Assembly (NCBI RefSeq): GCF_002854065.1
Contig: NZ_CP024147.1
DNA from: Escherichia coli
GTDB lineage: Bacteria > Pseudomonadota > Gammaproteobacteria > Enterobacterales > Enterobacteriaceae
Reading direction: 5' to 3' (one strand)
DNA length: 64,000 nt
In this document: positions 1,382-39,445 of the stretch, piece by piece
Layout: each line of letters starts with the position of its first letter
Position numbering within the stretch: position 1 is the stretch's first letter
The notes under the pieces: generated by a model
What the model saw: the letters and a program-made list of their open reading frames with translations, nothing else
Told to the model about the DNA's origin: nothing
The model's database searches: none
Translations under genes and position numbers: made by a program

Positions 1382-1405
1382 AATGGCGGCAATTACGCCG
1401 CCATT
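1382..1405 (-). promoter_or_regulatory. Intercistronic hairpin between the major subunit and chaperone genes
   Basis: Inverted repeat AATGGCGGC (1382-1390) / GCCGCCATT (1397-1405) with no following T-run. It resembles the attenuating stem-loops seen after pilin genes in chaperone-usher operons. Confidence 0.45.
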
Positions 1406-1419
1406 TGTAAAACGGACGA

Positions 1420-1944
1420 TTACTCGTAAGACAGGTTGAAATCGACCTGCGCATTGCCGTAACCGGTCGTTACCGTTGCCAGAGTTGAAACGTAGTTGGC
1501 GGTAAAGTAGAGAACCGTCTGGCCTGTTTTCAGGTCAACACTTGCTTTACCACCGTTAAGAGCGACCAGGGTGTTGCTGTTATCATAAATACCGATACCA
1601 ACACCTTTGGCCGCACCTGCTTCAGTGCTAACAGAAATCAGATCAGATTTATCTGCATCACCAACACCAGTAAAGCTCACATTGGCTTTTTTCATCGTTG
1701 TGGTATCGCAATCTTCCAGTTTGATTTCGAAAGGTTTCGCCGGGGATTTGTCACCAACCGCAGCAAATACAGATTTTTGTACCTGACCCAACACAACTTC
1801 CTGGTTCTGAGAGTCAACGGACAGTACGCAAGGTGAATCCACGATCTCGCCTGTAAATTTAACCGTACCATCACCAGATTCTGCTGCAAATGCAGAGCCG
1901 GAGGTTAACGCCAGTGCAGTTAAGGCAAAAACGACCTTTTTCAT
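1420..1944 (-). CDS. lpfA: Fimbrial major subunit, long-polar-fimbriae type
   Basis: It has a Sec signal MKKVVFALTALALTSGSAFA|AE, a Cys pair and a C-terminal ...NAQVDFNLSYE typical of type-1-like pilins. The start was moved to ATG 1944, which follows a GGAG. The position beside yhjX matches the lpf1 locus of other E. coli (from memory). Confidence 0.8.
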   Translation of the reverse strand: MKKVVFALTALALTSGSAFAAESGDGTVKFTGEIVDSPCVLSVDSQNQEVVLGQVQKSVFAAVGDKSPAKPFEIKLEDCDTTTMKKANVSFTGVGDADKSDLISVSTEAGAAKGVGIGIYDNSNTLVALNGGKASVDLKTGQTVLYFTANYVSTLATVTTGYGNAQVDFNLSYE

Positions 1945-2235
1945 GAAAAACTCCATTTTATTAAATCACATTAATTAGCAAATAGTGATGCTTTAACATT
2001 GCATCAACTTTGAAGGCGGGATTATACAAATAAACAAGGAAAAGAAAATTAAGAGGATAAAATATCAATAAATTAAGAAAGTGTGAATTTTGATTTAAAT
2101 CACTAAGTTGCCTTTCGGGATAAAAAATCAGGAATGATTTTTAGGAAAAAACAAATACAAAATATCAATTAATCAATCCATATACATTCACTTTGTAAAT
2201 ATATAGAGTTTTGTAATCTCCTTATTATTTTAAAC

Positions 2236-2260
2236 GAAAAAAAGGGGCTCTCTCGCCCCT
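2236..2260 (-). terminator. Rho-independent terminator of yhjX
   Basis: Stem GGGGC (2244-2248) / GCCCC (2255-2259), followed on the minus strand by a T-run (plus-strand A-run 2237-2243). Confidence 0.7.
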
Positions 2261-2284
2261 TCGTTAATAACCAACGCCATCTCA

Positions 2285-3487
2285 TTAAATATGCGCCTCA
2301 CGCAACACTTTCTGCTGCGGCTGGCGAATGGTGGTGGAAAGTGCCAGGGAAATAATCAGCAGAGCAAAGATGACGCAGAAAGTCACATAAAATCCACCGA
2401 ATAGCGAGGCGATAATCGAACCGCAAATGCTGCCGATACCAAAACCGAGGTAAATCACACCGTAGTTTTTCGCCAGATTATTGAGGCCGAAGAACTCACT
2501 AACCAGTGACGGGAAAACGGTAATGGTGCCGCCGAAGTTAAATGCTACACAAGCAATCGCGGCGAAGAATGTTAACGCGTTAAGCGGTGCAAACAGCAGA
2601 GCAGCCATGCCCACCAGTGACACTACCTGACCAATGGTGATGACGCGAATACGCGAGATTTTGTCAGACAGAATACCCAGCACCAGGCGCCCGCTAAGGT
2701 TGGCGATGGAAATAACAGTGACTGCATTGGCTGCAGAAACCACATCAAGGTGTGCCAGACTTTGGGCGATATCTTTCGCTACCCCAATCACGTACAGGCC
2801 GCTCATGCAGGCAGTCAGGAACATTACCGCTAACATCCAGTACTGCGGTTTACGCATCGACTCTGCCAGCGTGTAATCTTTCTCCACCACACCATTGCTG
2901 GTTTTCACTTCCTGTTTTGGTGCGTCTTTCATTAACGTTGCGCCGAAAACAATCATCACCAGCGCAATCGCTCCCCAAATCACAAAGGTTTTTTCCAGAC
3001 CGACCGTTTCCAGCAGCTGCGTGTCGATAAATTTGAAACCCAGGCTACCCAGACCATAAGAACCGATAGCGAACGCGGAGATCAGACCTTTACGCTCCGG
3101 GAACCATTTCACGCAGTTAGAGAGCGTCAGCAGGTAACCCGCGCCATCCGCCAGACCGACCAGCACACCGGCGCTTAACCACAGCATCATCAGGTTGTCA
3201 GAATGCGCTGTCAGGAAGAACCCTAATCCCAGCAAAATGCCGGAAGCGATGGTGACGCGTTTAACACCAAAACGTTCCTGCAATTTGCCCGCAACAGAAG
3301 ACGAAATTGCCAGCCCCAGACTTAACAAGCCGAAAGAGAAAGCGACCTGGCTTACCGGCGCATCCAGCTTGGCGGAAAGCGCGCCGTTAAACAGGCTCCA
3401 GGTATAAACCGACCCCAGCGCAAACTGGGTAATGATAGTACCGATGAGTGTCAGCCAGCGGGTACGCTGATAATTTGAAGGTGTCAT
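2285..3487 (-). CDS. yhjX: MFS transporter YhjX (pyruvate-inducible)
   Basis: The protein from MTPSNYQRTRWLTLIGTIITQFALGSVYTW... is recognised as E. coli YhjX. The start was trimmed to ATG 3487. Confidence 0.93.
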   Translation of the reverse strand: MTPSNYQRTRWLTLIGTIITQFALGSVYTWSLFNGALSAKLDAPVSQVAFSFGLLSLGLAISSSVAGKLQERFGVKRVTIASGILLGLGFFLTAHSDNLMMLWLSAGVLVGLADGAGYLLTLSNCVKWFPERKGLISAFAIGSYGLGSLGFKFIDTQLLETVGLEKTFVIWGAIALVMIVFGATLMKDAPKQEVKTSNGVVEKDYTLAESMRKPQYWMLAVMFLTACMSGLYVIGVAKDIAQSLAHLDVVSAANAVTVISIANLSGRLVLGILSDKISRIRVITIGQVVSLVGMAALLFAPLNALTFFAAIACVAFNFGGTITVFPSLVSEFFGLNNLAKNYGVIYLGFGIGSICGSIIASLFGGFYVTFCVIFALLIISLALSTTIRQPQQKVLREAHI

Positions 3488-3570
3488 GGCAGTATTCCTG
3501 CAGTAATAAAAAGGAAAAATCTCTGCCGACAACCATAACGAAGTGCACTTTATGCCTGGGGAAAAACGGC

Positions 3571-3601
3571 ATGAAATGCCATCAGAACGGAATGAAATGC
3601 C
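3571..3601 (-). promoter_or_regulatory. YpdB (LytTR response regulator) binding direct repeat in the yhjX promoter
   Basis: ATGAAATGCC at 3571-3580 and again at 3592-3601, separated by exactly 11 nt. On the yhjX strand this reads GGCATTTCAT-N11-GGCATTTCAT, the motif I recall for YpdB. Confidence 0.7.
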
Positions 3602-3715
3602 TTAGTTCAGGAATGAATGACGCGACAATTATTCACCAAATTTATTATTTGGTAAGTTAGCACCCACTATCGCCACAACTATTGTTATTCAATGGTTTCA
3701 ATTGTGATTGTTACG

Positions 3716-4420
3716 TTAAAATCTGGCACTAACCCCCATCGTATACAGATAATCGCTATTGTTAGTGGTATTTTCTGCCTGAGATAGCGCGGCATAGGCG
3801 GCAATATTTTGATTGAGCAACATATCAGCGCCTACGGTGACATCCAGCCAGTTGCCGTTCTGGTTTGTCGCCGTCATCCGGCTCAGGCCTGATTGCGCCT
3901 TCCAGATATTCTCGCCAAATTGCTGGTTATAGCTGATTTGCGCCCAGGGTCGGAGATCGCCAAGCCGGGAGTCAACACGCCAGCCTAAGGTACTCACGCT
4001 GGCATGCCATAACGGATCGGTCAGCGTGGTAGTACTGTCGCCAAACTCGTTATACATCGAGGTGGTTGTGCCATCGTAATGTAATGCCGCGACCGGGCCA
4101 GTTGTAACCTGTTCATATAAAGGAAAATTCCAGCCCATACTCATACTGCTGGTCACATCCACAGGGGTTTCTTCCGCCAGATTGACTTCCAGTCCCAGCG
4201 CCCTTTGGCTACTTTGAATACGTTGCGACAAAATATCGTTGTAATCAGGTTGATGATCACTATCCCAGGTGTAACGCTCTGTGGAATGCCCGGGTTGCGT
4301 ATCAACGATATATTCTTGTTGCCAGGCGTAAGCTGTGTTGAGAAAAAAGGCACTGATTACCACACTCGCCAGCAGGCTTAGCTGCCAGCGACCACCGCTT
4401 TTTTTTATGATCATTAACAC
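3716..4420 (-). CDS. yhjY: Putative outer-membrane beta-barrel protein YhjY
   Basis: 234-aa ORF with signal-like N-terminus ...WQLSLLASVVISAFFLNTAYA and a C-terminal ...YLYTMGVSARF (terminal Phe). Recognised as YhjY. Confidence 0.85.
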   Translation of the reverse strand: MLMIIKKSGGRWQLSLLASVVISAFFLNTAYAWQQEYIVDTQPGHSTERYTWDSDHQPDYNDILSQRIQSSQRALGLEVNLAEETPVDVTSSMSMGWNFPLYEQVTTGPVAALHYDGTTTSMYNEFGDSTTTLTDPLWHASVSTLGWRVDSRLGDLRPWAQISYNQQFGENIWKAQSGLSRMTATNQNGNWLDVTVGADMLLNQNIAAYAALSQAENTTNNSDYLYTMGVSARF

Positions 4421-4571
4421 GACTCCAGGGAAGAGCCGAATTCGGCAATATTATTGTCATTGTATGAAGGATATCGGGCATAGTAGCCCTGTATTAAATA
4501 TTGACTTTTTCACCGATGCGTCAAGAAAAGCGGCTGAAATTTTTACGATCGGGTACATAGCGAGGGAAAGT

Positions 4572-5135
4572 ATGGAACGTTGCGGCTGGGTGAGTCAGGA
4601 CCCGCTTTATATTGCCTACCATGATAATGAGTGGGGCGTGCCTGAAACTGACAGTAAAAAACTGTTCGAAATGATCTGCCTGGAAGGGCAGCAGGCTGGG
4701 TTATCGTGGATCACCGTCCTCAAAAAACGCGAAAACTATCGCGCCTGCTTTCATCAGTTCGATCCGGTGAAGGTTGCCGCAATGCAGGAAGAGGATATCG
4801 AAAGACTGGTACAGGACGCCGGGATTATCCGCCATCGCGGGAAAATTCAGGCAATTATTGGTAATGCGCGGGCGTACCTGCAAATGGAACAGAACGGCGA
4901 ACCGTTTGCCGACTTTGTCTGGTCGTTTGTAAATCATCAGCCACAGGTGACACAAGCCACAACGTTGAGCGAAATCCCCACATCTACGCCCGCCTCCGAC
5001 GCCCTATCTAAGGCACTGAAAAAACGTGGTTTTAAGTTTGTCGGTACCACAATCTGTTACTCCTTTATGCAGGCATGTGGGCTGGTGAATGATCATGTGG
5101 TTGGCTGCTGTTGCTATCCGGGAAATAAACCATGA
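4572..5135 (+). CDS. tag: 3-methyladenine DNA glycosylase I
   Basis: MERCGWVSQDPLYIAYHDNEWGVPETDSKKLFEMICLEGQQAGLSW... is recognised as Tag. The ORF-track start at 4335 is an upstream extension. Confidence 0.95.
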   Translation: MERCGWVSQDPLYIAYHDNEWGVPETDSKKLFEMICLEGQQAGLSWITVLKKRENYRACFHQFDPVKVAAMQEEDIERLVQDAGIIRHRGKIQAIIGNARAYLQMEQNGEPFADFVWSFVNHQPQVTQATTLSEIPTSTPASDALSKALKKRGFKFVGTTICYSFMQACGLVNDHVVGCCCYPGNKP

Positions 5136-5572
5136 TTAGGGAAGCGCAACGTTCAGAACTCCCCGCGATCCTCGAACTGTGGCTGGAAAGTACAACCTGG
5201 GGCCATCCCTTTATAAAAGCGAATTACTGGCGCGAGTGCATTCCGCTGGTGCGGGATGCCTATCTTGCCAACGCACAAAACTGGGTCTGGGAAGAAGACA
5301 GTAAGCTTCTCGGTTTTGTCAGCATTATGGAAGGCCGATTTCTGGCAGCGATGTTTGTCGCACCGAAGGCCGTCAGGCGCGGTATTGGTAAGGCGCTGAT
5401 GCAGTATGTGCAACAGCGCCATCCCCATCTGATGCTGGAGGTTTATCAAAAAAATCAACCGGCGATAGATTTTTACCAGGCGCAGGGTTTTCACATTGTC
5501 GATTGCGCATGGCAGGATGAAACCCAACTACCCACCTGGATTATGAGCTGGCCGGTGGTTCAAACGCTGTAA
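5132..5572 (+). CDS. yiaC: GNAT-family N-acetyltransferase YiaC
   Basis: 146-aa ORF whose start overlaps the tag stop (ATGA at 5132-5135). It carries the GNAT motif [11 protein letters not shown]. Confidence 0.9.
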
Positions 5573-7874
5573 GTGTCAGTTCCGGACCGTTGTATTTTTC
5601 TAGCCATGCCAGCGCCGTATTACCCGCACAGCCATTCCCCAGCCGCGAGCTGGGGAGATCTTTGGTCAGCACGTTGACTGCGCCGTTTTTACAAATACCG
5701 TCAGCGGTTAAATCCAAATCCGGCCATGCCCCTTCGTGAATACAAATCACGCCAGGTTTAATTCCCTCGCTAATGACCGCTCCGGCAAGAATTTGCCCGC
5801 GTGCGTTCCACAGCCGAACAGTATCGCCATCTTGTATGCCGCGCGCCTGGGCATCGTCAGGATGAATGGTGACAGGCTCACGGTTTGCCACCGCGTACAA
5901 TTCGCGCAGAGAACTGTAATTCAGCTGGCTGTGCAGACGATGCGCCGGATGAGCAGAAAGTACCTGTAACTGTTCCGGTTCGGCATTGCCCTGCCATTCG
6001 TCCGGCACCAGCCACATTGGATGCCCCGGGCAATCCGGATAAGCGTAATCGGCAATACGCTGCGAGAAGATTTCAATCTTACTGCTGGCGGTTTTTAATG
6101 GATGCACCTGCGGATCCCGGCAAAAATCAGCGAAGCGAATAAACCGCTCGCTGTCCGGGTTTTCCGGCATCTCAATTAACTGATTGGCTTGCCAGAACTC
6201 AGCAAATGGCGGCAATTCAACCTGCTGGCTTGCCCCGCGCTGTCGGGCAACGTTATAAAACGTTTCCAGCCATTGCAGCTCACTTTTTCCTTCCGTAAAA
6301 CGTGCATAACCGCCCTTCTCCCAGCGTTCACTTAACTCGGCAAAAACATCAAAATCATTACGCGCTTCATAGCGTGGCGGCACCACTTGCTTCATCGGCA
6401 CCAGATGCTGATTACTATAATCACCGGTCATGGTGAGATCATTACGCTCAAAAGAGGTAGTCGCAGGCAGAACGATATCCGCGTGTTTCGCCGCCGCCGT
6501 CCAGAAGCATTCAGAGATCACCACCAGCTCCGGTTTTTGCCAGGCACGGATCAGGCGATTGGTATCCTGATGATGAGTAAAGTTGGCACCGCCCGCCCAC
6601 CAGATAAAACGAATATCCGGGAAATGTCGGTCCATACCGTTGTGTTGATATGCGCCACCGGGGTTTTCCAGTGCTTCAACAATGCGGGCGACAGGGATTT
6701 TATCTACCGCATCGCAGCCACCCGGCAAGCTGCCCTGCATGGAAGAGAGTACCGCAGCGCGCCGCGTGGGGTTACCACCATTGGCAAAATGGTAAGAAAG
6801 ACCAAAACCGCCGCCGGGTGTGCCGATTTGCCCCAACATTGCTGCCAGCGTGACGATCATCCAGTGTTTTTGCTCACCAAACTGTTGGCGCTGCATTCCC
6901 CAGCCAGCCATCAGCATGGTGGTATTTTGGTGGAAAATAGCCGCCAGCTCGCGGATTTTCGCTGCGCCAACACCACAAATCTCTGCTGCCCATTCGGCGG
7001 TTTTCGCTATTCCGTCACTCTCGCCCAGCAAATAAGAGGCGAAGACGGCATAACCTGTGGTGCAACGCGCCAGAAACGCTTCGTCGTGCCAACCATTTTC
7101 CACCAGCGTATGGGCGATCCCCAGCATCAGCGCAACATCAGTGCCCATGTGCGGTGCCACCCACTCCATTTTATCGCCAAAGAAATCGACGGTTTCCGAT
7201 CGCATTGGATCAATGCAGATCAGCTTTTTCCCGCTGTCACGCAGTGCAGAAAAGTAAGAAAGCCCCTGCTCATCGGATGCATTCCACGCAATTTTCAGCG
7301 TATTGAGTGGGTTAGCACTCCACAGCACCACGACATCGCTATGTTCCAGCACCAGCGGCCAACTGGTCTGCTGTTGATAAACTTCACTACCACCCACGAC
7401 ATACGGCATGATCGCCTGTGCCGCGCCGGTCGAATAATCCCCCAGATGCCCGGTATAACCGCCTGCCAGCGCCATATAGCGTTGTAATAATGTCGAGGCC
7501 TTATGCAGCACGCCGTTTGAACGCCAGCCGTAGGAACCAGCAAAAATCGATGCCGGACCATAAGCCTCACGAATGCGTTTATGTTGTTGGTGAATAAGAT
7601 CCAGCGCCTCATCCCAACTCACGCGAACAAATTCATCCTGCCCACGAATGCCTTGCGGGTTTTCCGGTGACGCGAGAAAGCCTTTGCGCACCATTGGAAA
7701 TCGTACCCGCGTATTGCTGTGAACCTGGTCGCGAACCGCGCTCTGCAAGGAGTTTTCCATTCCTGTGGCTAACGCGCCACGCGAGCTAAACACGGTTTCG
7801 CCGTCGGTTTCAACCAGCATGGGCCCCCAATGGGCGGCAGTCAGAACGGAATATCGTGAGGATGAGTTGGCCAA
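5541..7874 (-). CDS. bisC: Biotin sulfoxide reductase (molybdopterin enzyme)
   Basis: 777-aa [28 protein letters not shown]..., recognised as BisC. The start codon on the minus strand at 7874-7872 is TTG. The 3' end overlaps yiaC convergently by 32 nt. Confidence 0.93.
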
Positions 7875-8026
7875 ACCGAAGACTCCTGAAAGGTTAGATG
7901 TATTGAGCAGTTAAATATTACTTACAAATTTCCGAGTATTCCCAGGAATAATCTTCATGTTCACGCGGCATAATCTCCCGCCACGGAACCCGTGGCAAAG
8001 AATAAAAAGGTTATTAAGGATTAACA

Positions 8027-12308: not shown

Positions 12309-14378
12309 TTACTGCAACAGCGAAATATCCGCAACGCGCAGGAACAGTTCGCGCAGTTTCTCCAGCATGGTCAGACGGTTGATACGCAATTCTTTGTCAT
12401 CAACCATGACCATCACTTTATCGAAGAAGGCATCGACCGGTTCACGCAGCTCTGCCAGTTCGACCAGCGCATCCTGGTAACGACCTTCCGCAAAGTACGG
12501 CTCCAGCTTGTCACGTAGCACCACAACCTGCATCGCCAGTTTAATTTCTTCCGGCTCTTTCAGAGTAGAGGCATTCACGCGATCGCTCAGCACTTCGTCA
12601 GATTTCGCCAGGATGTTAGATACACGTTTGTTCGCCGCCGCCAGTGCTGCAGCTGCTTCCAGGGTACGGAAGTGCGATACCGCTTTCATGCGGGCATCGA
12701 AATCAGCCGGACGAGTCGGACGACGCGCCAGTACCGCCTGGATGGTGTCAACGGTATAACCTTCGTCCTGATACCAGGCGCGGAAGCGACCGAGCATAAA
12801 GTCGATAACATCATCAACTACGTTGGCATTAGTCAGCTTATCGCCATACAGACGCACCGCTTCTTCGGTCAGCGTTTGCAGATCAAGGTTGAGGTTCTTC
12901 TCAACGATAATTCGCAGCACGCCAAGTGCGGCACGACGCAGCGCAAACGGGTCTTTGTCGCCTTTCGGATGCTGACCGATACCGAAGATACCCGCCAGAG
13001 TATCCATCTTATCAGCAATCGCCAGCGCACAAGCTACCGGGTTGGACGGCAGGTCATCACCGGCAAAGCGCGGCTGATACTGCTCATTCAGCGCGACGGC
13101 TACGTCTTCCGCTTCGCCATCGTGACGCGCGTAGTGCATCCCCATAACGCCTTGGGTGTCGGTGAACTCGAAGACCATGTTGGTCATCAGGTCACACTTA
13201 GACAGCAGGCCCGCACGGGTTGCGTGGTTAACGTCAGCGCCAATCTGTTCGGCGATCCAGCCAGCCAGCGCCTGGATGCGGTCAGTTTTGTCACGCAGCG
13301 TACCCAGCTGTTGCTGGAACAGCACGGTTTGCAGACGCGGCAGGTTATCTTCCAGACGTTTTTTACGGTCGGTGTTGAAGAAGAACTCGGCATCAGCCAG
13401 ACGTGGACGAACGACTTTCTCGTTACCAGAGATAATTTGCTGCGGATCTTTCGATTCGATGTTGGCAACGAAGATAAAGTTCGGCAGCAGTTTGCCGTCG
13501 TTCGCATACACCGGGAAGTACTTCTGGTCACCTTTCATGGTGTAAACCAGTGCTTCAGACGGCACCGCGAGGAATTTCTCTTCAAATTTCGCGGTTAGAA
13601 CGACCGGCCACTCCACCAGCGAAGCCACTTCTTCCAGCAGGCTTTCGCTTAAGTCAGCGTTACCGCCAATCTTACGCGCTGCTTCTTCGGCATCGGCTTT
13701 AATCTTCGCCTTACGTTCTTCGTAATCGGCGATGACTTTCCCACGCTCACGCAGAATTTCCGGATACTGATCGGCGTTATCGATGGTGAATTCCGGCTCG
13801 CCCATAAAGCGGTGGCCGCGAATCACGCGATCGGACTGAATGCCCAGAATGGTTGCAGGAATGACTTTGTCGCCCAGCAGCAGGGTCACGGTGTGCACCG
13901 GACGCACGAAGTGCACGTCGCTTGCACCCCAGCGCATCAGTTTCGGAATCGGCAGTTTCGCCAGCGAAGTCGCAACCATATTCGGCAGCAGTGCTTCAGT
14001 GCTTTCGCCCTTCACATGGGCGCGATACAGCAGCCATTCGCCTTTATCGGTAGTCAGACGCTCAGCCTGGTCAACGGTAATACCGCAACCACGCGCCCAA
14101 CCTTCTGCCGCTTTGCTCGGTTTGCCTTCAGCGTCGAACGCCTGGGCAATCGCCGGGCCGCGTTTTTCGATTTCACGATCCGGTTGCGCTTCCGCCAGGT
14201 TAGCTACTTTCAGCGCCAGACGACGCGGAGCAGCAAACCATTGAACGGTGCCGTGTGCGAGGCCAGCGTTATCCAGCTCCGCAGTAAAGTTCGCAGCAAA
14301 GGACTCTGCCAGGCTGCGCAGTGCTTTTGGTGGCAGCTCTTCAGTGCCGATTTCCACCAGAAAAGTTTTCTCAGACAT
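12309..14378 (-). CDS. glyS: Glycine--tRNA ligase beta subunit
   Basis: 689-aa [30 protein letters not shown]..., recognised as GlyS. Confidence 0.97.
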
Positions 14379-28725: not shown

Positions 28726-30756
28726 ATGAAACTCGCCGCCTGTTTTCTGACACTCCTTCCTGGCTTCGCCGTTGCCGCCAGCTGGACTTCTCCGGGGTTC
28801 CCTGCCTTTAGTGAACAGGGAACGGGAACATTTGTCAGCCACGCGCAGTTGCCCAAAGGTACGCGTCCACTAACGCTAAATTTTGACCAACAGTGCTGGC
28901 AGCCTGCGGATGCGATAAAACTCAATCAGATGCTTTCCCTGCAACCTTGTAGCAACACGCCGCCTCAATGGCGATTGTTCAGGGACGGCGAATATACGCT
29001 GCAAATAGACACCCGCTCCGGTACGCCAACATTGATGATTTCCATCCAGAACGCCGCCGAACCGGTAGCAAGCCAGGTCCGTGTATGCCCGAAATGGGAT
29101 GGATTACCGCTCACGCTGGATGTCAGCGCCACTTTTCCGGAAGGAGCCGCCGTACGGGATTATTACAGCCAGCAAATTGCGATAGTGAAGAACGGTCAAA
29201 TAACGTTACAACCCGCTGCCACCAGCAACGGTTTACTCCTGCTGGAACGGGCAGAAACTGACACATCCGCCCCTTTCGACTGGCATAACGCCACGGTTTA
29301 CTTTGTGCTGACAGATCGTTTCGAAAACGGCGATCCCAGTAATGACCAGAGTTACGGACGTCATAAAGACGGTATGGCGGAAATTGGCACTTTTCACGGC
29401 GGCGATTTACGCGGCCTGACCAACAAACTGGATTATCTCCAGCAGCTGGGCGTCAATGCTTTGTGGATAAGCGCCCCATTTGAGCAAATTCACGGCTGGG
29501 TCGGCGGCGGTACAAAAGGTGATTTCCCGCATTATGCCTACCACGGTTATTACACACAGGACTGGACGAATCTTGATGCCAATATGGGCAGCGAAGCCGA
29601 TCTACGGACGCTGGTTGATAGCGCGCATCAGCGCGGTATTCGTATTCTCTTTGATGTCGTGATGAACCACACTGGCTATGCCACGCTGGCGGATATGCAG
29701 GAGTATCAGTTTGGCGCGTTATATCTTTCTGGTGACGAGCTGAAAAAAACGCTGGGTGAACGCTGGAGTGACTGGAAACCTGCCGCCGGGCAAACCTGGC
29801 ATAGCTTTAACGATTACATTAATTTCAGCGACAAAACAGGCTGGGATAAATGGTGGGGAAAAAACTGGATCAGAACGGATATCGGCGATTACGACAATCC
29901 TGGATTTGACGATCTCACTATGTCGCTGGCCTTTTTGCCGGATATCAAAACCGAATCAACGACCGCTTCTGGTCTGCCGGTGTTCTATAAAAACAAAACG
30001 GATACCCACGCTAAAGTCATCGACGGCTTTACCCCTCGCGATTACTTAACCCACTGGTTAAGTCAGTGGGTCCGCGACTATGGGATTGATGGTTTTCGGG
30101 TCGATACCGCCAAACATGTTGAGTTGCCCGCCTGGCAGCAACTGAAAACCGAAGCCAGCGCCGCGCTTCGCGAATGGAAAAAAGCTAACCCCGACAAAGC
30201 ATTAGATGACAAACCTTTCTGGATGACCGGTGAAGCCTGGGGCCACGGCGTGATGCAAAGTGACTACTATCGCCACGGCTTCGATGCGATGATCAATTTC
30301 GATTATCAGGAGCAGGCGGCGAAAGCAGTCGATTGTCTGGCGCAGATGGATACGACCTGGCAGCAAATGGCGGAGAAATTGCAGGGTTTCAACGTGTTGA
30401 GCTACCTCTCGTCGCATGATACCCGCCTGTTCCGTGAAGGGGGCGACAAAGCAGCAGAGTTATTACTATTAGCGCCAGGCGCGGTACAAATCTTTTATGG
30501 TGATGAATCCTCGCGTCCGTTCGGTCCTACAGGTTCTGATCCGCTGCAAGGTACACGTTCGGATATGAACTGGCAGGATGTTAGCGGTAAATCTGCCACC
30601 AGCGTCGCGCACTGGCAGAAAATCAGCCAGTTCCGCGCCCGTCATCCCGCAATTGGCGCGGGCAAACAAACGACACTTTCGCTGAAGCAGGGCTACGGCT
30701 TTGTTCGTGAGCATGGCGACGATAAAGTGCTGGTCATCTGGGCTGGGCAACAGTGA
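28726..30756 (+). CDS. malS: Periplasmic alpha-amylase
   Basis: 676-aa ORF with signal peptide MKLAACFLTLLPGFAVA and GH13 motifs (DVVMNH, GFRVDTAKH, EAWGH, FLSSHD-like). Confidence 0.96.
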   Translation: MKLAACFLTLLPGFAVAASWTSPGFPAFSEQGTGTFVSHAQLPKGTRPLTLNFDQQCWQPADAIKLNQMLSLQPCSNTPPQWRLFRDGEYTLQIDTRSGTPTLMISIQNAAEPVASQVRVCPKWDGLPLTLDVSATFPEGAAVRDYYSQQIAIVKNGQITLQPAATSNGLLLLERAETDTSAPFDWHNATVYFVLTDRFENGDPSNDQSYGRHKDGMAEIGTFHGGDLRGLTNKLDYLQQLGVNALWISAPFEQIHGWVGGGTKGDFPHYAYHGYYTQDWTNLDANMGSEADLRTLVDSAHQRGIRILFDVVMNHTGYATLADMQEYQFGALYLSGDELKKTLGERWSDWKPAAGQTWHSFNDYINFSDKTGWDKWWGKNWIRTDIGDYDNPGFDDLTMSLAFLPDIKTESTTASGLPVFYKNKTDTHAKVIDGFTPRDYLTHWLSQWVRDYGIDGFRVDTAKHVELPAWQQLKTEASAALREWKKANPDKALDDKPFWMTGEAWGHGVMQSDYYRHGFDAMINFDYQEQAAKAVDCLAQMDTTWQQMAEKLQGFNVLSYLSSHDTRLFREGGDKAAELLLLAPGAVQIFYGDESSRPFGPTGSDPLQGTRSDMNWQDVSGKSATSVAHWQKISQFRARHPAIGAGKQTTLSLKQGYGFVREHGDDKVLVIWAGQQ

Positions 30757-32292: not shown

Positions 32293-32337
32293 AAACAAAG
32301 CGCACTATTCCGGCGTTTAGAAACGCTGGAAAACGTT

Positions 32338-32811
32338 TCAAACAGGCTGCTGCCGTAGCCGATGCCGCTGCACTTTCTCGACATCCATGCACTGCAACGC
32401 CTTTGTCGGGCAGGCTTCAACACAGGCCGGTCCCGTCGCCCGATGCCAGCACAGATCGCACTTAATCGCCCTCGCCTTTTTGCGCGAAGAAACGACCTCC
32501 ATCGCACCAAACGGGCAAGCCAGCATACAGCTTTTACAGCCAATGCAACGTGTTTGTTCAACGAAAATATGCCCATGTTCGCGGCTTATCGCGTCAACAG
32601 GGCAGACATTCGCGCACGGTGCATCTTCACACTGATGACAGGCTACTGCCGTGGTCCAGCTGTGGTCTTTAATGACACGAATACGGGAAATAAACTCGTC
32701 TGGTGACAACGCAGCGCAATCCTGATTCTCCTGATGCGACACTGCGCAAGCCACTTCACAGGTACGGCAACCGATACATTTCGTCGCATCCGCAATAATA
32801 AACCGGTTCAT
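32338..32811 (-). CDS. ysaA: 4Fe-4S ferredoxin-type protein YsaA
   Basis: MNRFIIADATKCIGCRTCEVACAVSH... with four CxxCxxCxxxC(P) clusters, 157 aa. Confidence 0.92.
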   Translation of the reverse strand: MNRFIIADATKCIGCRTCEVACAVSHQENQDCAALSPDEFISRIRVIKDHSWTTAVACHQCEDAPCANVCPVDAISREHGHIFVEQTRCIGCKSCMLACPFGAMEVVSSRKKARAIKCDLCWHRATGPACVEACPTKALQCMDVEKVQRHRLRQQPV

Positions 32812-32912
32812 GATCACTCCTTTGCACTAAAACAGCAGAGTGCCAGAGAGCGCGTCCCTACTGCTTTGATCCAACGAAGGAAATGTTAAAGTTTTGGCAC
32901 TTGTCCAAAGCG

Positions 32913-33053
32913 TTATGTGATCGCGCCCAGGTCATCCCTGACAGTAAATCCCAGTTCATTAGAAATAGCCTGCGCGGTTTCACGCAGTGGTTTCAGGAGA
33001 TTTTTCTCCCCCACCTGTTTCAGACGTGATGTCGAAAGCGAAATCGACACGGC
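32913..33053 (-). pseudogene. yiaJ: 3'-terminal remnant (46 codons plus stop) of the IclR-family repressor gene yiaJ
   Basis: The minus-strand frame gives AVSISLSTSRLKQVGEKNLLKPLRETAQAISNELGFTVRDDLGAIT*, an IclR-type C-terminus matching YiaJ from memory. The homology stops 1 nt from the stop codon of the neighbouring AraC-type gene. Confidence 0.7.
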
Positions 33054-33054
33054 A

Positions 33055-33870
33055 CTACGAATTGATATGTTCCTTGCTGTAACGCCGCTTCCACGCTGCT
33101 GGCGTTAAACCGGTGTGTTTGCGAAAAATCTGCCGGAAATAGCCAACGTCATTAAACCCGCACAACGCCGCCACTTCCGTGAGCGATCGCGCTTCGCTAA
33201 TTAACAGCTTTTCGGCTTCGCGCACCCGCTGGCGATGGATTGCTTCTGTTAACGTCAGATGAAACACCCGCCGGTAGACGCGCCCAAGATAATCGGCATT
33301 GCAGTACAGCTCGCGGGCCAGAAGCGCCGTAGAAAGCGGGCGATGATATTGCGTGCGGATCAGTTTCTGCGCTTTCCAGGCAAGGGTGGTGCCTGCGCCA
33401 TCGGCCTGTTCATCAAGACGCGCGTCACGGGTGAGCTGCTGCAAAATGAGCAGCACAATAAACTCCAGCGCCGGAGTGCGTTGATGCTTTTCCTGTTCGC
33501 TTAAGAACTGGCGAAACAGGGCCACCAGCGCCTGCGGATCGACAACCTTCGTTTGTTGCGGCACGCTAAGATGAGTAAGCCAGCGAGGGTCGTTGTCCGG
33601 CGCTTTAACCTCAAAATGCAGCCAGTAAAATTTGAGATCGGCGGGAAAATCCTCCACCCCAACATGTTGTCGGTTCGGCCAGAGTAATAAACTCTCTCCC
33701 GCATCGACCAGAAATATCCGTTCTTCTTCCTGAATCGTTAATCGACCTTTTTCGACAAAGATAATTTCCCATGACTCCAGCCGCCTTGCAGGATGCCTCC
33801 CTACGCCACGGGAAATAAATAATCCACCATTTTGCACTTTAATCGGTAACGTCATGGATAATTCGAGCAT
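33055..33870 (-). CDS. AraC-family transcriptional regulator (cupin-like sensor plus AraC HTH)
   Basis: 271-aa ORF. The C-terminus ...SLTEVAALCGFNDVGYFRQIFRKHTGLTPAAWKRR is a canonical AraC/XylS HTH. It is divergent from the transporter/hydrolase pair. Confidence 0.85.
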   Translation of the reverse strand: MLELSMTLPIKVQNGGLFISRGVGRHPARRLESWEIIFVEKGRLTIQEEERIFLVDAGESLLLWPNRQHVGVEDFPADLKFYWLHFEVKAPDNDPRWLTHLSVPQQTKVVDPQALVALFRQFLSEQEKHQRTPALEFIVLLILQQLTRDARLDEQADGAGTTLAWKAQKLIRTQYHRPLSTALLARELYCNADYLGRVYRRVFHLTLTEAIHRQRVREAEKLLISEARSLTEVAALCGFNDVGYFRQIFRKHTGLTPAAWKRRYSKEHINS

Positions 33871-34095
33871 TGATATGTAATTTCCCGCTTATTCATTAAT
33901 GATTAAACACATTACCTTTTGATTATTAATCAAAAACATTAATTTCACCTGATCTATTTCACACTTTTAAATTCAGGTCGGAATCGTCACCTTTTTTTAC
34001 TCTTTTCTCGCCTTGTTGATATTCCCGTTCACGGCAGAATTAATCAGGTCATTTCAATAAAACTAAAAATTGCTCCCTATTCACGAGGAATATCT
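33871..34095. promoter_or_regulatory. Divergent control region of the AraC / GPH-GH127 locus
   Basis: A 225-bp AT-rich spacer. It holds a perfect 7-1-7 palindrome TTGATTA-T-TAATCAA at 33919-33933. A CRP-like half-match CCTGA-N6-TCACA lies at 33948-33963. Confidence 0.4.
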
Positions 34096-35496
34096 ATGAC
34101 CTCTACACCGATTACTACCGCTGATATCGCTAAAGGTAAAATTGACGATGCGTTATCTGTACGGGAAAAAATAGGCTACGGCCTGGGTGACGCAGGCGGC
34201 ACCGTAATAACTTGCCTGATCATGAATTTTCTCACCTTTTTCTACACCGACGTTTTTGGATTAACTCCGGCGCTGGTTGGCACGCTGTTTATTGCACTGC
34301 GCGTGTTTGATGCCATCTCCGACCCGGTGATGGGCGTCATTGCCGACCGGACGCAAAGTCGCTGGGGGCGCTTTCGTCCGTGGCAGCTATGGATTGCCAT
34401 TCCCATCGGCATTATCGGCATCCTGACGTTCACCGTGCCAGATGCCAGCATGGGAGTAAAAATCGCCTGGGCGTTCGGTACTTACCTGCTCCTTTCAGTC
34501 GGTTATACCGCCATCAACGTACCGTACTGCGCGCTGATCAACACCATGACCACCCGCCACAATGAAGTGATCTCCTGCCAGTCCTGGCGATTCGTTCTCT
34601 GTGGCGTAGCGGGATTTCTGGTTTCGGTAGGCTTACCGTGGATGGTAGATCTCTTCGGTCAGGGTAATGCCGCGCGCGGCTATCAATTGGGCGTCGGCGT
34701 GCTGTGCGCCATTGCCGTGGTGATGTTCCTGTGCTGTTTTTTCTGGGTTCGTGAACGGGTGCCACTCTCCACAATGGGGAAATTTACCCTGCGCGAACAT
34801 CTTGCCGGGCTGCGGAACAACGACCAACTGCTGCTGATGCTGGTCATGTCTTTCCTGCTGATTAACGTCTTTAACATTCGCGGCGGTGGGTATATGTACT
34901 TCATTACCTACGTCTTACAAGGCAGTACGGGCTACACGTCGCTGTTCTTCACCATGGTCACCTTCGCCTCCATTATCGGCTCGGTGATTGTCAGCCCGTT
35001 AACGCGGCGTTTCGATACCGTCAAAATTTACTACTACACCAACCTGCTCCTCGCTGCGCTGGCAGTGTTGATGTGGTTCCTGCCCTCCGGCCCGGCTTAT
35101 CAAACGCTGTGGCTGGCGGTGATCCTCGGTAATGGCGTAATTCTTGGCTTCACATTGCCACTGCACTTCTCATTGATGGCCTTTGCCGATGACTACGGCG
35201 AGTGGAAAACCCGCGTACGTTCTTCCGGCATGAACTTCGCCTTCAATCTGTTTTTCATCAAGCTGGCCTGGGCCTCCAGCGCCGGGATCATCAGCCTGCT
35301 GTTTATTTTTGTCGCCTACCAGCCTGGCGTGGAAAACCAGACCGCCAGTTCGCTTGGCGGGATCGCGGCGATGGAAACATTACTGCCTGCGCTATTCCAC
35401 CTGCTGCTGGCAGGGGCGATCCGCTTTTGCAAACTCAATCATCCTATGATGTCACGCATAGCTACCGACCTGCGTCAGCGTCATGTACAGCCTTAA
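34096..35496 (+). CDS. Glycoside-pentoside-hexuronide (GPH):cation symporter family transporter
   Basis: 466-aa polytopic ORF behind GAGGA. N-terminal [33 protein letters not shown] and [21 protein letters not shown] are MelB/YicJ-type GPH signatures. Confidence 0.85.
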
Positions 35497-35506
35497 GGAG
35501 CACAAG

Positions 35507-37477
35507 ATGAACATTTCGGAAGTCGATCTGCATAAACTGACGGTCAGCGATCCGTTCCTCGGTCAGTACCAACAACTGGTCCGCGACGTGGTGATTCCTT
35601 ATCAGTGGGATGCTTTGAACGATCGTATCCCAGAAGCGGAACCCAGCCATGCGATTGAAAACTTTCGCATTGCCGCCGGACTTCAGGAGGGTGAATTTTA
35701 CGGGATGGTGTTTCAGGACAGCGACGTCGCCAAATGGCTGGAAGCAGTAGCCTGGTCGCTGTGCCAGAAGCCGGACGCCGAACTGGAAAAAACCGCCGAC
35801 GAGGTGATTGAACTGGTCGCCTCCGCCCAGTGCGAAGACGGCTATCTCAATACTTACTTTACGGTAAAAGCACCCGAAGAACGCTGGAGCAATCTGGCGG
35901 AGTGTCATGAACTTTACTGCGCAGGTCATCTGATTGAAGCCGGAGTCGCCTTCTTCCAGGCCACGGGAAAACGGCGCTTGCTGGGGGTCGTTTGCCGCCT
36001 GGCCGATCATATCGACAGCGTATTTGGTCCAGATGAAAGTAAGTTACACGGTTATCCTGGTCACCCGGAAATTGAACTGGCACTAATGCGCCTGTATGAA
36101 GTGACTGAAGAGCCGCGCTACCTGGCGCTGACGAACTATTTTGTCGAACAGCGTGGTGCGCAACCGCACTATTACGACCAGGAATATGAAAAGCGCGGGC
36201 AGACATCGCACTGGCACACCTACGGCCCGGCATGGATGGTGAAAGACAAAGCCTACAGCCAGGCACATTTGCCCCTTGCGCAACAGCAAACCGCCATCGG
36301 TCACGCGGTACGTTTTGTCTATCTGATGACCGGCGTCGCGCATCTCGCGCGTTTAAGTCACGATGACAGCAAGCGTCAGGACTGCCTGCGGCTGTGGAAC
36401 AATATGGCCCAGCGTCAGTTATATATTACCGGCGGCATTGGCTCGCAAAGCAGCGGCGAAGCGTTCACTAGCGATTACGATCTGCCGAATGACACGGTAT
36501 ACGCTGAAAGTTGCGCCTCCATCGGCCTGATGATGTTTGCCCGACGAATGCTGGAAATGGAAGGCGACAGTCAATATGCCGATGTGATGGAGCGCGCACT
36601 GTACAACACCGTGCTCGGCGGCATGGCGCTGGATGGCAAACATTTCTTCTATGTGAATCCGCTGGAAGTACATCCAAAATCGCTGAAATTCAACCATATC
36701 TACGATCACGTTAAACCGATCCGCCAGCGTTGGTTTGGCTGCGCTTGTTGTCCGCCAAATATCGCCCGCGTGCTGACCTCGATTGGTCATTATCTCTACA
36801 CGCCGCGTGAAGATGCGTTGTATATCAACATATACGCAGGAAACAGCATGGAAGTGCCGGTAGAAAATGGCACGCTGCGCCTGCGGGTTAGCGGGAACTA
36901 TCCGTGGCAGGAGCAGGTGACGATTGCGGTTGAATCGCCCCAGCCGGTACGTCATACGCTGGCTTTACGTCTGCCGGACTGGTGCACACAGCCGCAGATC
37001 ATATTGAATGGGGAAGAGGTCGAGCAGGATATTCGTAAAGGGTATTTGCACATTACCCGCGAATGGCAGGAGGGCGATACGCTGAATCTGACTTTGCCGA
37101 TGCCGGTACGCCGCGTTTACGGTAACCCGCTGGTGCGTCACGTCGCCGGAAAAGTGGCGATTCAGCGCGGCCCGCTGGTGTATTGCCTGGAACAGGCCGA
37201 CAACGGCGAGTCACTGCATAATCTGTGGCTGCCCACCGATGCGCCATTTACGACATTTGAAGGCAAGGGATTGTTTAGCCATAAGATCTTAATCCAGGCA
37301 CCGGGTTACCGGTATGAACAGAGCAATCCAGAGCAGCAACCGCTGTGGCATTACGACAGCGCGCCAGCCAAACGCCAGACGCAAACTCTGACCTTTATCC
37401 CATGGTTTAGCTGGGCCAACCGGGGTGAAGGCGAAATGCGGATCTGGGTGAATGAGGAAAAGCATTGCCATCCGTAG
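35507..37477 (+). CDS. Glycoside hydrolase family 127 (DUF1680; beta-L-arabinofuranosidase-like), cytoplasmic
   Basis: The start was chosen at ATG 35507, which lies 6 nt after AAGGAG. 656 aa with no signal peptide. Numbered from 35507, E318 (GEAF), E334/C336 (YAESCAS) and C414-C415 (WFGCACCPPN) sit at near-identical positions to the acid/base and Zn/Cys nucleophile residues I recall for HypBA1. Confidence 0.85.
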   Translation: MNISEVDLHKLTVSDPFLGQYQQLVRDVVIPYQWDALNDRIPEAEPSHAIENFRIAAGLQEGEFYGMVFQDSDVAKWLEAVAWSLCQKPDAELEKTADEVIELVASAQCEDGYLNTYFTVKAPEERWSNLAECHELYCAGHLIEAGVAFFQATGKRRLLGVVCRLADHIDSVFGPDESKLHGYPGHPEIELALMRLYEVTEEPRYLALTNYFVEQRGAQPHYYDQEYEKRGQTSHWHTYGPAWMVKDKAYSQAHLPLAQQQTAIGHAVRFVYLMTGVAHLARLSHDDSKRQDCLRLWNNMAQRQLYITGGIGSQSSGEAFTSDYDLPNDTVYAESCASIGLMMFARRMLEMEGDSQYADVMERALYNTVLGGMALDGKHFFYVNPLEVHPKSLKFNHIYDHVKPIRQRWFGCACCPPNIARVLTSIGHYLYTPREDALYINIYAGNSMEVPVENGTLRLRVSGNYPWQEQVTIAVESPQPVRHTLALRLPDWCTQPQIILNGEEVEQDIRKGYLHITREWQEGDTLNLTLPMPVRRVYGNPLVRHVAGKVAIQRGPLVYCLEQADNGESLHNLWLPTDAPFTTFEGKGLFSHKILIQAPGYRYEQSNPEQQPLWHYDSAPAKRQTQTLTFIPWFSWANRGEGEMRIWVNEEKHCHP

Positions 37478-37478
37478 G

Positions 37479-37593
37479 TTGGATAAGGCACTCGCGCCGC
37501 ATCCAACGTAAGGAGCACATTGCCTGATGCGACGCTTAACACGTCTTATCAGGCATACAAGTCGGTGCGAGAGCGTAGGCCAGCCGCACCGAC
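37479..37593. repeat. Cluster of three REP units
   Basis: GTTGGATAAGGCACTCGCGCCGCATCCAAC, TGCCTGATGCGACGCTTAACACGTCTTATCAGGCA and GTCGGTGCGAGAGCGTAGGCCAGCCGCACCGAC. Confidence 0.85.
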
Positions 37594-37606
37594 ATCCACC
37601 GGTGAA

Positions 37607-38347
37607 TTAAAAACGCCAGCTCACGCCGGTGACAAAGGTAAAACTCTCATTACGATCAATCATCGGGCTGTCGGTAATCTCTTCCGGCAGCTCGCTGTAT
37701 CCGGCGCTCGCCATCAATACGACGTGCTCTCCTATCGGGTATTTTGCCGTCAGGCTGACATAGGGCACCCAGGCATCCTGCGCGGAATAACTTGCCAGAC
37801 CGCTACGACGGGACTCACTCTCTGAAATGCCATAGTAATAGTCACTGAAATTCTCGTCATAATAGAGAACGCCCAGCGCAGGTGTCAGCGACAGACGACC
37901 TATCTGCATTTTGTGGAATACCGATAGCTCCCCCACCCAGCCGTTGCTGTTATCCAGAACGTCCGCAGCTGCAGAGGCTTTCACGGTTCCCCAACGCTCG
38001 TGGTGATACCAGGCAACCCCCGCCATAGCCGTACTATCACGCTTATCAAGCTGTTGCATGGCATAATCGTCATTATCGGCAGGGTCAAATTCCAGCGGCA
38101 TCCAGGATGCGGTCAGGCTAAGTTCATTTTTTTCACTTTGCGACAGAATAAAACCTAACGTGGTCTGACGAACATAAAAAGAATCACCTTCATAACTAAT
38201 CAGGGGAATTGCCTTTGTATTTTCATTATAACCGCGATAAGGCGATTCATTATAAGCCGCACCAGCACCAATGGATAATTCAGAAGCAGTTGCGCTTGCC
38301 ATAAAAGGCAACGCAAATAACGCCACAATATTGCGGTTAATTAACAT
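37607..38347 (-). CDS. yiaT: MipA/OmpV-family outer-membrane protein YiaT
   Basis: 246-aa ORF with signal peptide MLINRNIVALFALPFMASA and a C-terminal ...FVTGVSWRF. Confidence 0.9.
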   Translation of the reverse strand: MLINRNIVALFALPFMASATASELSIGAGAAYNESPYRGYNENTKAIPLISYEGDSFYVRQTTLGFILSQSEKNELSLTASWMPLEFDPADNDDYAMQQLDKRDSTAMAGVAWYHHERWGTVKASAAADVLDNSNGWVGELSVFHKMQIGRLSLTPALGVLYYDENFSDYYYGISESESRRSGLASYSAQDAWVPYVSLTAKYPIGEHVVLMASAGYSELPEEITDSPMIDRNESFTFVTGVSWRF

Positions 38348-38445
38348 GTCCGGTATTCCATTTTAAAATAAGATAAAAAAGAGTCGGCATAGTAATGCTT
38401 ACAATTTCTCCGGTGCAAGATTCATATTTATATAGTAATATATAA

Positions 38446-38459
38446 AATTATATATAATT
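38446..38459. promoter_or_regulatory. Perfect 14-bp palindrome in the yiaT-yiaU divergent region (candidate LysR operator)
   Basis: AATTATATATAATT, ending 11 nt upstream of the yiaU ATG. The AT-rich context makes a chance occurrence possible. Confidence 0.3.
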
Positions 38460-38470
38460 GGGCTGTTGCG

Positions 38471-39445
38471 ATGACAAAATTACAACTTAAGTACCGGGAG
38501 TTAAAAATTATCTCGGTAATCGCTGCCAGTGAAAATATCAGCCATGCTGCGACTGTACTTGGCATCGCACAGGCCAACGTCAGCAAATACCTTGCTGATT
38601 TTGAATCAAAAGTGGGTTTAAAAGTCTTTGACCGAACCACCCGGCAGCTGATGCTCACACCTTTTGGTACCGCGCTGTTACCGTACATCAACGACATGCT
38701 GGACAGAAACGAGCAGCTTAATAATTTTATTGCAGATTATAAGCATGAGAAACGTGGTCGGGTCACCATCTACGCCCCAACCGGCATAATTACCTATTTA
38801 TCCAAACATGTAATCGATAAAATTAAAGATATCGGTGATATAACCTTATCGCTAAAAACCTGCAATCTTGAGCGTAATGCCTTTTATGAAGGCGTCGAAT
38901 TTCCTGATGATTGTGATGTTTTAATCAGCTACGCTCCACCAAAAGATGAATCGCTGGTTGCCAGTTTTATTACACAATATGCCGTAACCGCTTATGCCAG
39001 CCAGCGCTATCTTGAGAAACATCCTATTAGCCGTCCTGACGAACTCGAACATCACTCCTGTATTTTGATCGACTCGATGATGATCGACGACGCGAATATC
39101 TGGCGCTTCAACGTCGCCGGGAGTAAAGAGGTGCGGGATTATCGCGTGAAGGGAAATTACGTTTGCGACAACACGCAATCTGCGCTGGAGCTGGCACGAA
39201 ATCACCTGGGGATTGTGTTTGCGCCAGACAAAAGTGTGCAGAGAGATCTGCAAGACGGCACGCTGGTGCCCTGCTTTCAGCACCCGTATGAATGGTGGCT
39301 GGATCTGGTGGCTATCTTCCGTAAACGGGAATACCAGCCCTGGCGGGTCCAGTATGTGCTGGATGAAATGCTGCGTGAAATTCGCCACCAGCTTGCTCAG
39401 TCGCAGCAACTGCGGCCTGAACAAGCGGCGGAAAGCGAAGATTAA
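38471..39445 (+). CDS. yiaU: LysR-family transcriptional regulator YiaU
   Basis: 324-aa ORF with the N-terminal HTH ...[23 protein letters not shown].... Confidence 0.9.

Follow-up and report, generated by a model that had tools for sequence, protein, structure and literature searches.

A conserved GH127 hydrolase locus of Escherichia coli and other Enterobacterales with a predicted role in beta-L-arabinofuranoside utilisation

Introduction

The beta-L-arabinofuranosidases of glycoside hydrolase family 127 (GH127) include Ara127N (AraN) of Geobacillus stearothermophilus T6, whose gene is the final one in a large cluster for L-arabinan utilisation that also encodes ABC transporters, several arabinanases and arabinofuranosidases. 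In HypBA1, the enzyme of Bifidobacterium longum, Cys417 is the nucleophile, Glu322 the acid/base and a zinc ion is held by a Cys3-Glu site (PMC8106489); in the bifidobacterial system an extracellular GH121 enzyme first releases beta-arabinobiose (beta-Ara2) from extensin-type glycoproteins (PMC8106489, PMC7889515). Here we describe a related locus in Escherichia coli, a triad of genes encoding an AraC-family regulator, a GPH cation symporter and a GH127 hydrolase, found in a 64,000-nt stretch of the E. coli chromosome (hereafter the window, to which coordinates refer unless stated otherwise). Based on sequence comparisons, the triad probably forms a self-contained module for the catabolism of small beta-L-arabinofuranosides, subject to activator and probably catabolite control.

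Literature searches on DUF1680, GH127 and beta-L-arabinofuranosidase in E. coli or the Enterobacteriaceae, and on the K-12 genes ysaC and ysaD, revealed no characterisation. A preliminary description of this DNA had stated that no such pathway is described for E. coli, and indeed no experimental, biochemical or genetic study of the locus was found. Its label 'uncharacterised' holds for the activity; by family, the gene already carries the automatic annotation 'glycoside hydrolase family 127 protein'. The GH127 gene is among the accessory genes that cosegregate with Caco-2 invasion in isolates from inflammatory bowel disease (IBD) (Kim et al. 2024, PMC11879602; commentary PMC11954838), and its function was deduced there from HypBA1 (PMC11879602). 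According to a plant study of O157:H7, E. coli 'cannot access L-Araf directly' (PMC8489885); O157:H7 nevertheless carries the GH127 locus. Activity-based probes for GH127 enzymes exist (PMC10728902), and L-arabinose metabolism has been linked to gut fitness and virulence control in enterohaemorrhagic E. coli (EHEC) and Salmonella (PMC11127945, PMC10016319).

Results

Relatives of the locus were sought by a scan of one genome per species, which gave 384; the best 80 (80–96% identical) were analysed and are referred to as the 80 loci. The triad and its signals are as follows.

33055–33870, minus strand: AraC-family regulator gene (271 aa), with a cupin ligand domain at the N-terminus and a double helix-turn-helix at the C-terminus
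33871–34095, no strand: divergent control region of 225 bp, with conserved blocks at invariant spacing (80 intergenic regions aligned)
34096–35496, plus strand: GPH cation symporter gene (466 aa), with a GAGGA Shine-Dalgarno sequence ahead
35495–35500, plus strand: AAGGAG Shine-Dalgarno sequence of the hydrolase gene, overlapping the TAA stop of the symporter gene (35494–35496), 6 nt before the ATG at 35507
35507–37477, plus strand: GH127 hydrolase gene (656 aa), a predicted cytoplasmic beta-L-arabinofuranosidase

All three open reading frames (ORFs), placed at these coordinates by the preliminary description with the regulator gene divergent, coincide with genes called by RefSeq in a 100%-identical E. 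coli genome, strain 100416, where 34096–35496 is named 'MFS transporter' and 35507–37477 'glycoside hydrolase family 127 protein'. The overlap of the AAGGAG with the transporter stop, seen in the same description, was also confirmed and suggests translational coupling of the symporter and hydrolase genes. The GH127 frame is also open from an upstream in-frame ATG at 35483 (35483–35506), within the end of the symporter gene, and comparable upstream extensions of this ORF (MFSLKE...) are present in other genera. The start at 35507 is preferred because it agrees with the annotation and with the placement of the Shine-Dalgarno sequence.

The hydrolase matched the GH127 catalytic domain (PF07944) with 374 bits (cutoff 24.9, E=8.6e-112, residues 12–427), a strong result for the GH127/DUF1680 hidden Markov model check that had been proposed beforehand, and the GH127 middle and C-terminal domains (PF20736, PF20737) with 84 and 89 bits, respectively. 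Its closest solved relative is PDB 4QJY (Geobacillus Ara127N), with 782 bits and 54% identity (residues 11–650 against 16–647), while HypBA1 (PDB 3WKW) is matched over its full length with 507 bits and 40% identity; both structures are named beta-L-arabinofuranosidase by their depositors. Two GH127 proteins of Bacteroides thetaiotaomicron are matched in part only, namely 6EX6 (386 bits, residues 248–648) and 5MQO (319 bits, residues 251–648). The sole NCBIfam match is the aceric acid hydrolase equivalog (NF049879), which scored 454.7 bits against a cutoff of 950, with its best stretch confined to residues 252–649. An (alpha/alpha)6-barrel with two beta-sandwich domains is implied by the full-length identities of 54% and 40% to solved structures; an AlphaFold2 model made from 18 close homologues (83–87% identical) was of low confidence, with a mean predicted local distance difference test score (pLDDT) of 52.8 and a predicted template modelling score (pTM) of 0.46.

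The residues that the preliminary description had numbered, and had placed near the catalytic centre of HypBA1, were all found at those positions, in the motifs GEAFT (E318), AESCAS (E334 and C336) and WFGCACCPPN (C414 and C415). In a direct sequence alignment E318, E334, C336, C414 and C415 correspond exactly to E322, E338, C340, C417 and C418 of HypBA1, and six Cys/Glu positions are invariant in 81 hydrolase orthologue sequences. E318 is thus the predicted acid/base and C414 the predicted nucleophile, with E334, C336, C414 and C415 as putative zinc ligands. The protein was also said to have no signal peptide, and none is visible: no hydrophobic stretch is present at the N-terminus, where Kyte-Doolittle means over 10 residues peak at 0.77 within the first 40 residues, and a cytoplasmic location is therefore likely.

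The symporter is a member of the GPH family (TIGR00792, 331.5 bits, cutoff 231.35, residues 25–462; Pfam MFS_2, 245.6 bits, E=9.8e-73, residues 27–448). It scored below the cutoffs of the named types, with 353.8 against 610 for the YagG subfamily, 322.9 against 836 for PRK11462, 205.9 against 456 for MelB and 190.5 against 528 for the glucuronide transporter, and represents a distinct, unnamed GPH subfamily. The nearest named types, YagG and PRK11462, are pentoside/xyloside-type carriers, so the transporter groups with glycoside carriers, as had been anticipated. Residues of MelB with roles in the cation site and in melibiose contact are the basis for a closer comparison. At 30% identity, the cation-site residues D55, D59, T121 and K377 of MelB align with D72, D76, T138 and K389 of the symporter, while the melibiose-contact residues D19, D124, W128 and R149 are replaced by T, N, C and F.

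The symporter gene of Pantoea stewartii ATCC 8199 (6590–7984 of its own stretch) is interrupted by an in-frame stop at about codon 204, whereas the other two genes of the triad seem intact. This is the sole in-frame stop in the triad among the sequences compared, and may be a species-specific inactivation.

The regulator contains HTH_18 (69.9 bits, cutoff 33.6, E=2.3e-19), HTH_AraC (40.9 bits, cutoff 26.6) and AraC_binding (39.2 bits, cutoff 21.1) domains; the E-values for all three proteins of the triad are well outside what chance would give. It was ruled out as an orthologue of AraC, as it scored 61.1 bits against a cutoff of 208 for the AraC equivalog (NF007860) and is 25% identical to K-12 AraC. 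The equivalents of the AraC residues Y82 and H93 are V and F and the N-terminal arm is absent, a comparison of ligand residues that was made at only 25% identity.

The 80 loci come from Escherichia sp., Citrobacter, Kluyvera, Klebsiella, Raoultella, Enterobacter, Lelliottia, Leclercia, Buttiauxella, Cedecea, Scandinavium, Phytobacter, Kosakonia, Superficieibacter, Yokenella, Trabulsiella, Pantoea and Mixta. The symporter gene is directly upstream of the GH127 gene in all 80, and the divergent regulator gene (63–94% identity) adjoins the GPH gene in 79, the exception being truncated by a contig end. The flanks vary by genus, with lyxK-sgbE upstream and yiaT-yiaU downstream, ysaA upstream, or unrelated genes. 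As the triad is constant while its flanks vary, it appears to move as a unit without a further conserved partner. In the flanks of Pantoea, Buttiauxella, Scandinavium and Mixta, where ORFs were read by position and N-terminus, neither a common extra gene nor arabinose genes were found. The unrelated neighbourhoods in distant genera suggest that the module was relocated as a unit during the evolution of the Enterobacterales. In Mixta theicola, the triad (353–5345 of its own stretch) directly follows genes that read like trpG/D-C-B-A.

The ratio of non-synonymous to synonymous substitution rates (dN/dS), determined pairwise against six genera, was 0.03–0.13 for all three genes (regulator, 0.05–0.13; symporter, 0.03–0.08; hydrolase, 0.03–0.09), and 0.03–0.06 against Escherichia sp. 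E1V33, and the triad is thus under purifying selection. Many carrier genera are plant-associated (Pantoea, Kosakonia, Phytobacter, Klebsiella and Enterobacter), which fits a plant-glycan substrate. Searches for homologues of the symporter and hydrolase revealed only close enterobacterial relatives with generic names, and so gave the taxonomic spread and no functional clue. Close orthologues of both proteins were frequent in subspecies arizonae, diarizonae and houtenae of Salmonella enterica, while few were labelled enterica, which hints at a similar presence/absence pattern in Salmonella.

The control region between the divergent genes contains the following elements.

33917–33935, no strand: perfect palindrome TTTTGATTA-T-TAATCAAAA with 9-nt arms, holding the conserved block TTGATTATTAA (33919–33929)
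33948–33963, no strand: CRP-like site CCTGATCTATTTCACA, with 8/10 matches to TGTGA-N6-TCACA
33975–34002, plus strand: conserved block AGGTCGGAATCGTCACCTTTTTTTACTC, near-invariant and always 10 nt away from the −35 element
34013–34040, plus strand: predicted operon promoter, with −35 TTGTTG (34013–34018), a 16-bp spacer and −10 CAGAAT (34035–34040)

In the alignment of the 80 intergenic regions, the gaps between blocks are 11, 10 and 16 nt without exception. TTGTTG is present in 72 sequences and CAGAAT or CAAAAT in 75, and the 16-bp spacer is kept in every one; transcription of the operon is predicted to start near 34047. A plain scan of 33871–34095 for the sigma-70 consensus gave no promoter, which is consistent with an activator-dependent one; the promoter above was proposed because of its cross-genus conservation. 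AGGTCGGAATCGTCACCTTTTTTTACTC, at about −72 to −45 of the predicted start, is a candidate activator-binding site by analogy with I1-I2 of araBAD. The TCACA half of the CRP-like site is invariant, at least 7/10 matches are found in all 80 sequences and the distance to the next block is fixed at 11 nt; 33948–33963 is a putative CRP-binding site.

The block TTGATTATTAA is at least 80–90% conserved, with ATTATT in 70/80 sequences. Across genera, only this left half of the palindrome 33917–33935 is conserved, and the element may therefore serve the regulator gene as a −10 element instead of being an operator for a dimer. AATAAT (minus strand, 33922–33927) is accordingly a candidate −10 element of the regulator gene promoter, the alternative being that the palindrome is an operator; in the former case, the CRP-like site could fall near −41 of the regulator promoter.

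The distribution of the locus was surveyed in 5426 complete E. coli genomes. Its internal 4 kb is present in 2324 (43%), 2313 of which keep at least 80% of the length, and it is absent from 3102 (57%). Carriers include O157:H7 and O145:H28, and all copies are chromosomal. In K-12, the region between ysaA and yiaT contains plaR(yiaJ)-yiaKLMNO-lyxK-sgbHUE followed by the small pseudogenes ysaC and ysaD (13814–14110 of the compared K-12 stretch). The first of these, ysaC (b4648), corresponds to the final 116 bp of the regulator gene region (window 33043–33158; 94.8% identical), and ysaD (b4649) to an internal part of the GH127 gene (window 37180–37369, about codons 558–621; 89.5% identical). K-12 has therefore lost the equivalents of 33159–37179 and 37370–37579, the latter being 210 bp that hold a REP/BIME-like cluster.

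The window has undergone a different loss, marked by two features to the left of the regulator gene.

32913–33053, minus strand: remnant of plaR/yiaJ (IclR-family repressor pseudogene), C-terminal 141 bp
33043–33053, no strand: deletion joint, an imperfect 11-bp repeat ATCGaCaCGGC (ATCGnCnCGGC), where two K-12 matches overlap

The plaR remnant, annotated in the identical genome as 'IclR ... incomplete; missing N-terminus' and with its K-12 alignment ending at 33053, is the left edge of a deletion of about 9 kb that extends from inside plaR to just past sgbE, with loss of yiaKLMNO-lyxK-sgbHUE. A comparison of three sequences revealed that the 11-bp repeat is common to the plaR interior and the spacer downstream of sgbE, and the loss is best described as a microhomology-type deletion. 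The joint is one base beyond the regulator stop codon and the regulator ORF is intact, while half of a GC-rich hairpin between sgbE and the regulator gene, complete in K-12, was removed. This joint is present in 426/5426 genomes, including records positioned like O157:H7 chromosomes, and sgbE is directly followed by the regulator gene, with both operons present, in 1893/5426. Three haplotypes can thus be distinguished: both operons (35%), the GH127 locus alone (8%) and the yiaJ-sgbE operon alone (the majority of the other 57%).

The same site, between sgbE and yiaT-yiaU, is occupied by the locus in Citrobacter, Klebsiella, Enterobacter, Lelliottia and others. This synteny, together with the chromosomal location of all copies, argues for an ancestral locus with lineage-specific deletions and not for an acquired island. 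Based on these comparisons, the locus is ancestral to the Enterobacterales and accessory in E. coli. A genomic-island reading was rejected because of the synteny and the K-12 remnants ysaC and ysaD.

The order of genes in the window is malS (28726–30756), avtA, ysaA (32338–32817, minus strand), the triad, yiaT (37607–38347, minus strand), yiaU, yiaV and yiaW. One further feature lies between the triad and yiaT.

37477–37593, plus strand: REP/BIME-type hairpin cluster, starting at the last base of the GH127 stop codon, with three hairpins

This cluster has a predicted folding energy of −59.6 kcal/mol (z=−5.98) and is likely to be a 3′ mRNA stabiliser or transcription barrier. An Rfam scan of 32300–38500 did not find a riboswitch or leader, the sole match being a REP-derived naRNA4-like element at 37477–37555 (58.7 bits, just below the cutoff of 59.5).

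Discussion

The results support the uptake and hydrolysis of beta-L-arabinofuranosides that the preliminary description had predicted, while the substrate, the inducer and the enzyme activity are what we infer from sequence comparisons, as are the parts played by CRP and the activator and the point where transcription starts. In the proposed mechanism a small glycoside would enter the periplasm via porins, candidates being beta-1,2-linked L-arabinofuranobiose or arabinofuranosyl-hydroxyproline fragments from plant extensins, arabinogalactan proteins or pectin. The GPH symporter would bring the glycoside in with a cation, and the cytoplasmic GH127 enzyme would remove the terminal beta-L-arabinofuranosyl residue by a retaining cysteine-glycosidase mechanism, with the zinc-bound C414 as nucleophile and E318 as acid/base. 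The freed L-arabinose would then be passed to the standard araBAD pathway. The divergent AraC-family protein may sense the glycoside or its product and activate the weak promoter TTGTTG-16 bp-CAGAAT from a site upstream of the −35 element, with the CRP-like site one step further upstream than the activator site, as at araBAD. As the locus has no releasing enzyme, E. coli would rely on plant turnover or on neighbouring microbes for the glycoside.

Several points weigh against this interpretation. The literature searched held no enzyme assay, growth test or expression data for the protein or its enterobacterial orthologues. GH127 includes other specificities, and a model for aceric acid hydrolase matches, although far below its cutoff; HypBA1, the relative with firm characterisation, shares only 40% identity. 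The triad has no arabinose genes beside it. The regulator is not an orthologue of AraC, and its ligand is not readable from sequence. In most genera the CRP-like site matches poorly in its left half (GA only). The loss of the locus from 57% of E. coli genomes suggests that it is dispensable in many niches.

Some of these points would also fit the same layout serving another substrate, where another furanoside-type glycoside is imported and cleaved and the supply of L-arabinose is not the purpose. Examples would be an aceric-acid-type or anhydro-sugar glycoside, another beta-L- or alpha-D-furanoside, or a plant secondary-metabolite arabinoside in which the aglycone matters. The polyspecificity of GH127, the below-cutoff aceric acid hydrolase equivalog as sole NCBIfam match, the presence of the B. 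thetaiotaomicron proteins 6EX6 and 5MQO among the PDB relatives, the linkage of ara genes in 0/80 loci and a regulator without the AraC Y82/H93 equivalents and N-terminal arm are all in keeping with it. The full-length similarity to the two beta-L-arabinofuranosidase structures (782 and 507 bits), however, far exceeds the partial similarity to 6EX6 (386) and 5MQO (319), and the aceric acid hydrolase score is under half of its cutoff. Another substrate is therefore an alternative to be kept in mind, at roughly one chance in a handful.

It is improbable that the locus survives in E. coli as a decaying or silent remnant, inherited but unexpressed or useless and heading for a loss like that in K-12. 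Such a fate is suggested by the 3102/5426 complete genomes without the locus and by the deletion-prone nature of the region, where K-12 lost the locus and the window lost the neighbouring yiaJ-sgbE operon, the joint of the latter having cost the regulator gene half of its downstream hairpin; the in-frame stop in the P. stewartii symporter gene points the same way. Decay would, however, be difficult to reconcile with the retention of at least 80% of the length in 2313/2324 carriers, three intact ORFs in the window, dN/dS values of 0.03–0.13 between genera and 0.03–0.06 against Escherichia sp. E1V33, conserved promoter blocks and invariant catalytic residues.

A horizontally acquired, pathotype-specific island, for example one linked to virulence in adherent-invasive E. 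coli (AIEC) or EHEC, is very improbable: the gene is accessory (43% of E. coli genomes), correlates with Caco-2 invasion among IBD isolates (PMC11879602) and occurs in O157:H7 and O145:H28, but the locus has the same chromosomal position in Citrobacter, Klebsiella, Enterobacter and Lelliottia, K-12 retains fragments at the same site (95% and 89% identical), and all matches are chromosomal with no mobile-element genes among the annotated neighbours.

A beta-L-arabinofuranoside module would have consequences for the ecology of E. coli. It is possible, although we regard it as rather doubtful, that about four in ten strains of E. coli, EHEC O157:H7 and O145:H28 among them, as well as most Enterobacteriaceae harvest beta-L-arabinofuranosyl disaccharides or glycopeptides released by others. 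If so, the source of the fragments would be the turnover of plant tissue or the extracellular enzymes of bifidobacteria or Bacteroides, and cross-feeding would give cytoplasmic L-arabinose. E. coli would gain a direct route to plant-derived L-arabinofuranosides, contrary to the statement in PMC8489885, and the presence/absence polymorphism between ysaA and yiaT would contribute to strain-level niche differences such as the association with invasion in IBD isolates. The locus also explains the K-12 pseudogenes ysaC and ysaD, and the three-state polymorphism could be used in comparative fitness studies.

Comparison with known systems

The E. coli hydrolase shares with HypBA1 (3WKW/3WKX) the three-domain GH127 architecture and the catalytic centre, and HypBA1 is an intracellular enzyme behind a dedicated importer (PMC8106489), as is proposed for the E. 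coli locus. The two systems differ in the importer, which is a single-component GPH symporter in E. coli and an ABC transporter with a beta-Ara2-binding protein in B. longum, and in the AraC-type regulator of the E. coli locus. The latter also has no partner of the extracellular GH121 (HypBA2) or GH43 type, and a 12-residue loop of HypBA1 (about residues 38–49) is missing in the E. coli hydrolase. This loop is also missing in Ara127N (4QJY/4QK0), in which the motifs GE(S/A)FT, AE(T/S)CAS and CACCPPN are identical or nearly so. Unlike Ara127N with its large cluster, the E. coli enzyme is part of a minimal three-gene module without another glycosidase.

Among the operons of E. coli, melR-melAB, yicJ-yicI, yagG-yagH and uidABC likewise contain a GPH symporter gene co-transcribed with that of a cytoplasmic glycoside hydrolase, and melR-melAB also has a divergent AraC-family regulator. 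The GH127 locus differs from these in its order of transporter then hydrolase and in the hydrolase family, a GH127 cysteine glycosidase, and its symporter does not keep the sugar-contact residues of MelB.

At the araBAD promoter, CRP binds at about −93 and AraC occupies I1-I2 at −72 to −35. Assuming a start near 34047, the locus has a comparable arrangement, with a CRP-like site at about −92, a 28-bp block at about −72 to −45 and weak −35 and −10 elements. The block AGGTCGGAATCGTCACCTTTTTTTACTC, however, is unrelated in sequence to the I1/I2 half-sites of AraC, the two regulators share only 25% identity, and both start and binding are predictions in the case of the locus.

Taken together, these comparisons suggest that the locus is a conserved enterobacterial orthologue of known beta-L-arabinofuranosidase systems in a standard arrangement of regulator, symporter and hydrolase. 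Mechanistically it offers nothing new for GH127 enzymes or for GPH or AraC-type operons; what it adds to the known systems is an evolutionary picture, with the remnants ysaC and ysaD and three haplotypes, and a concrete promoter model.

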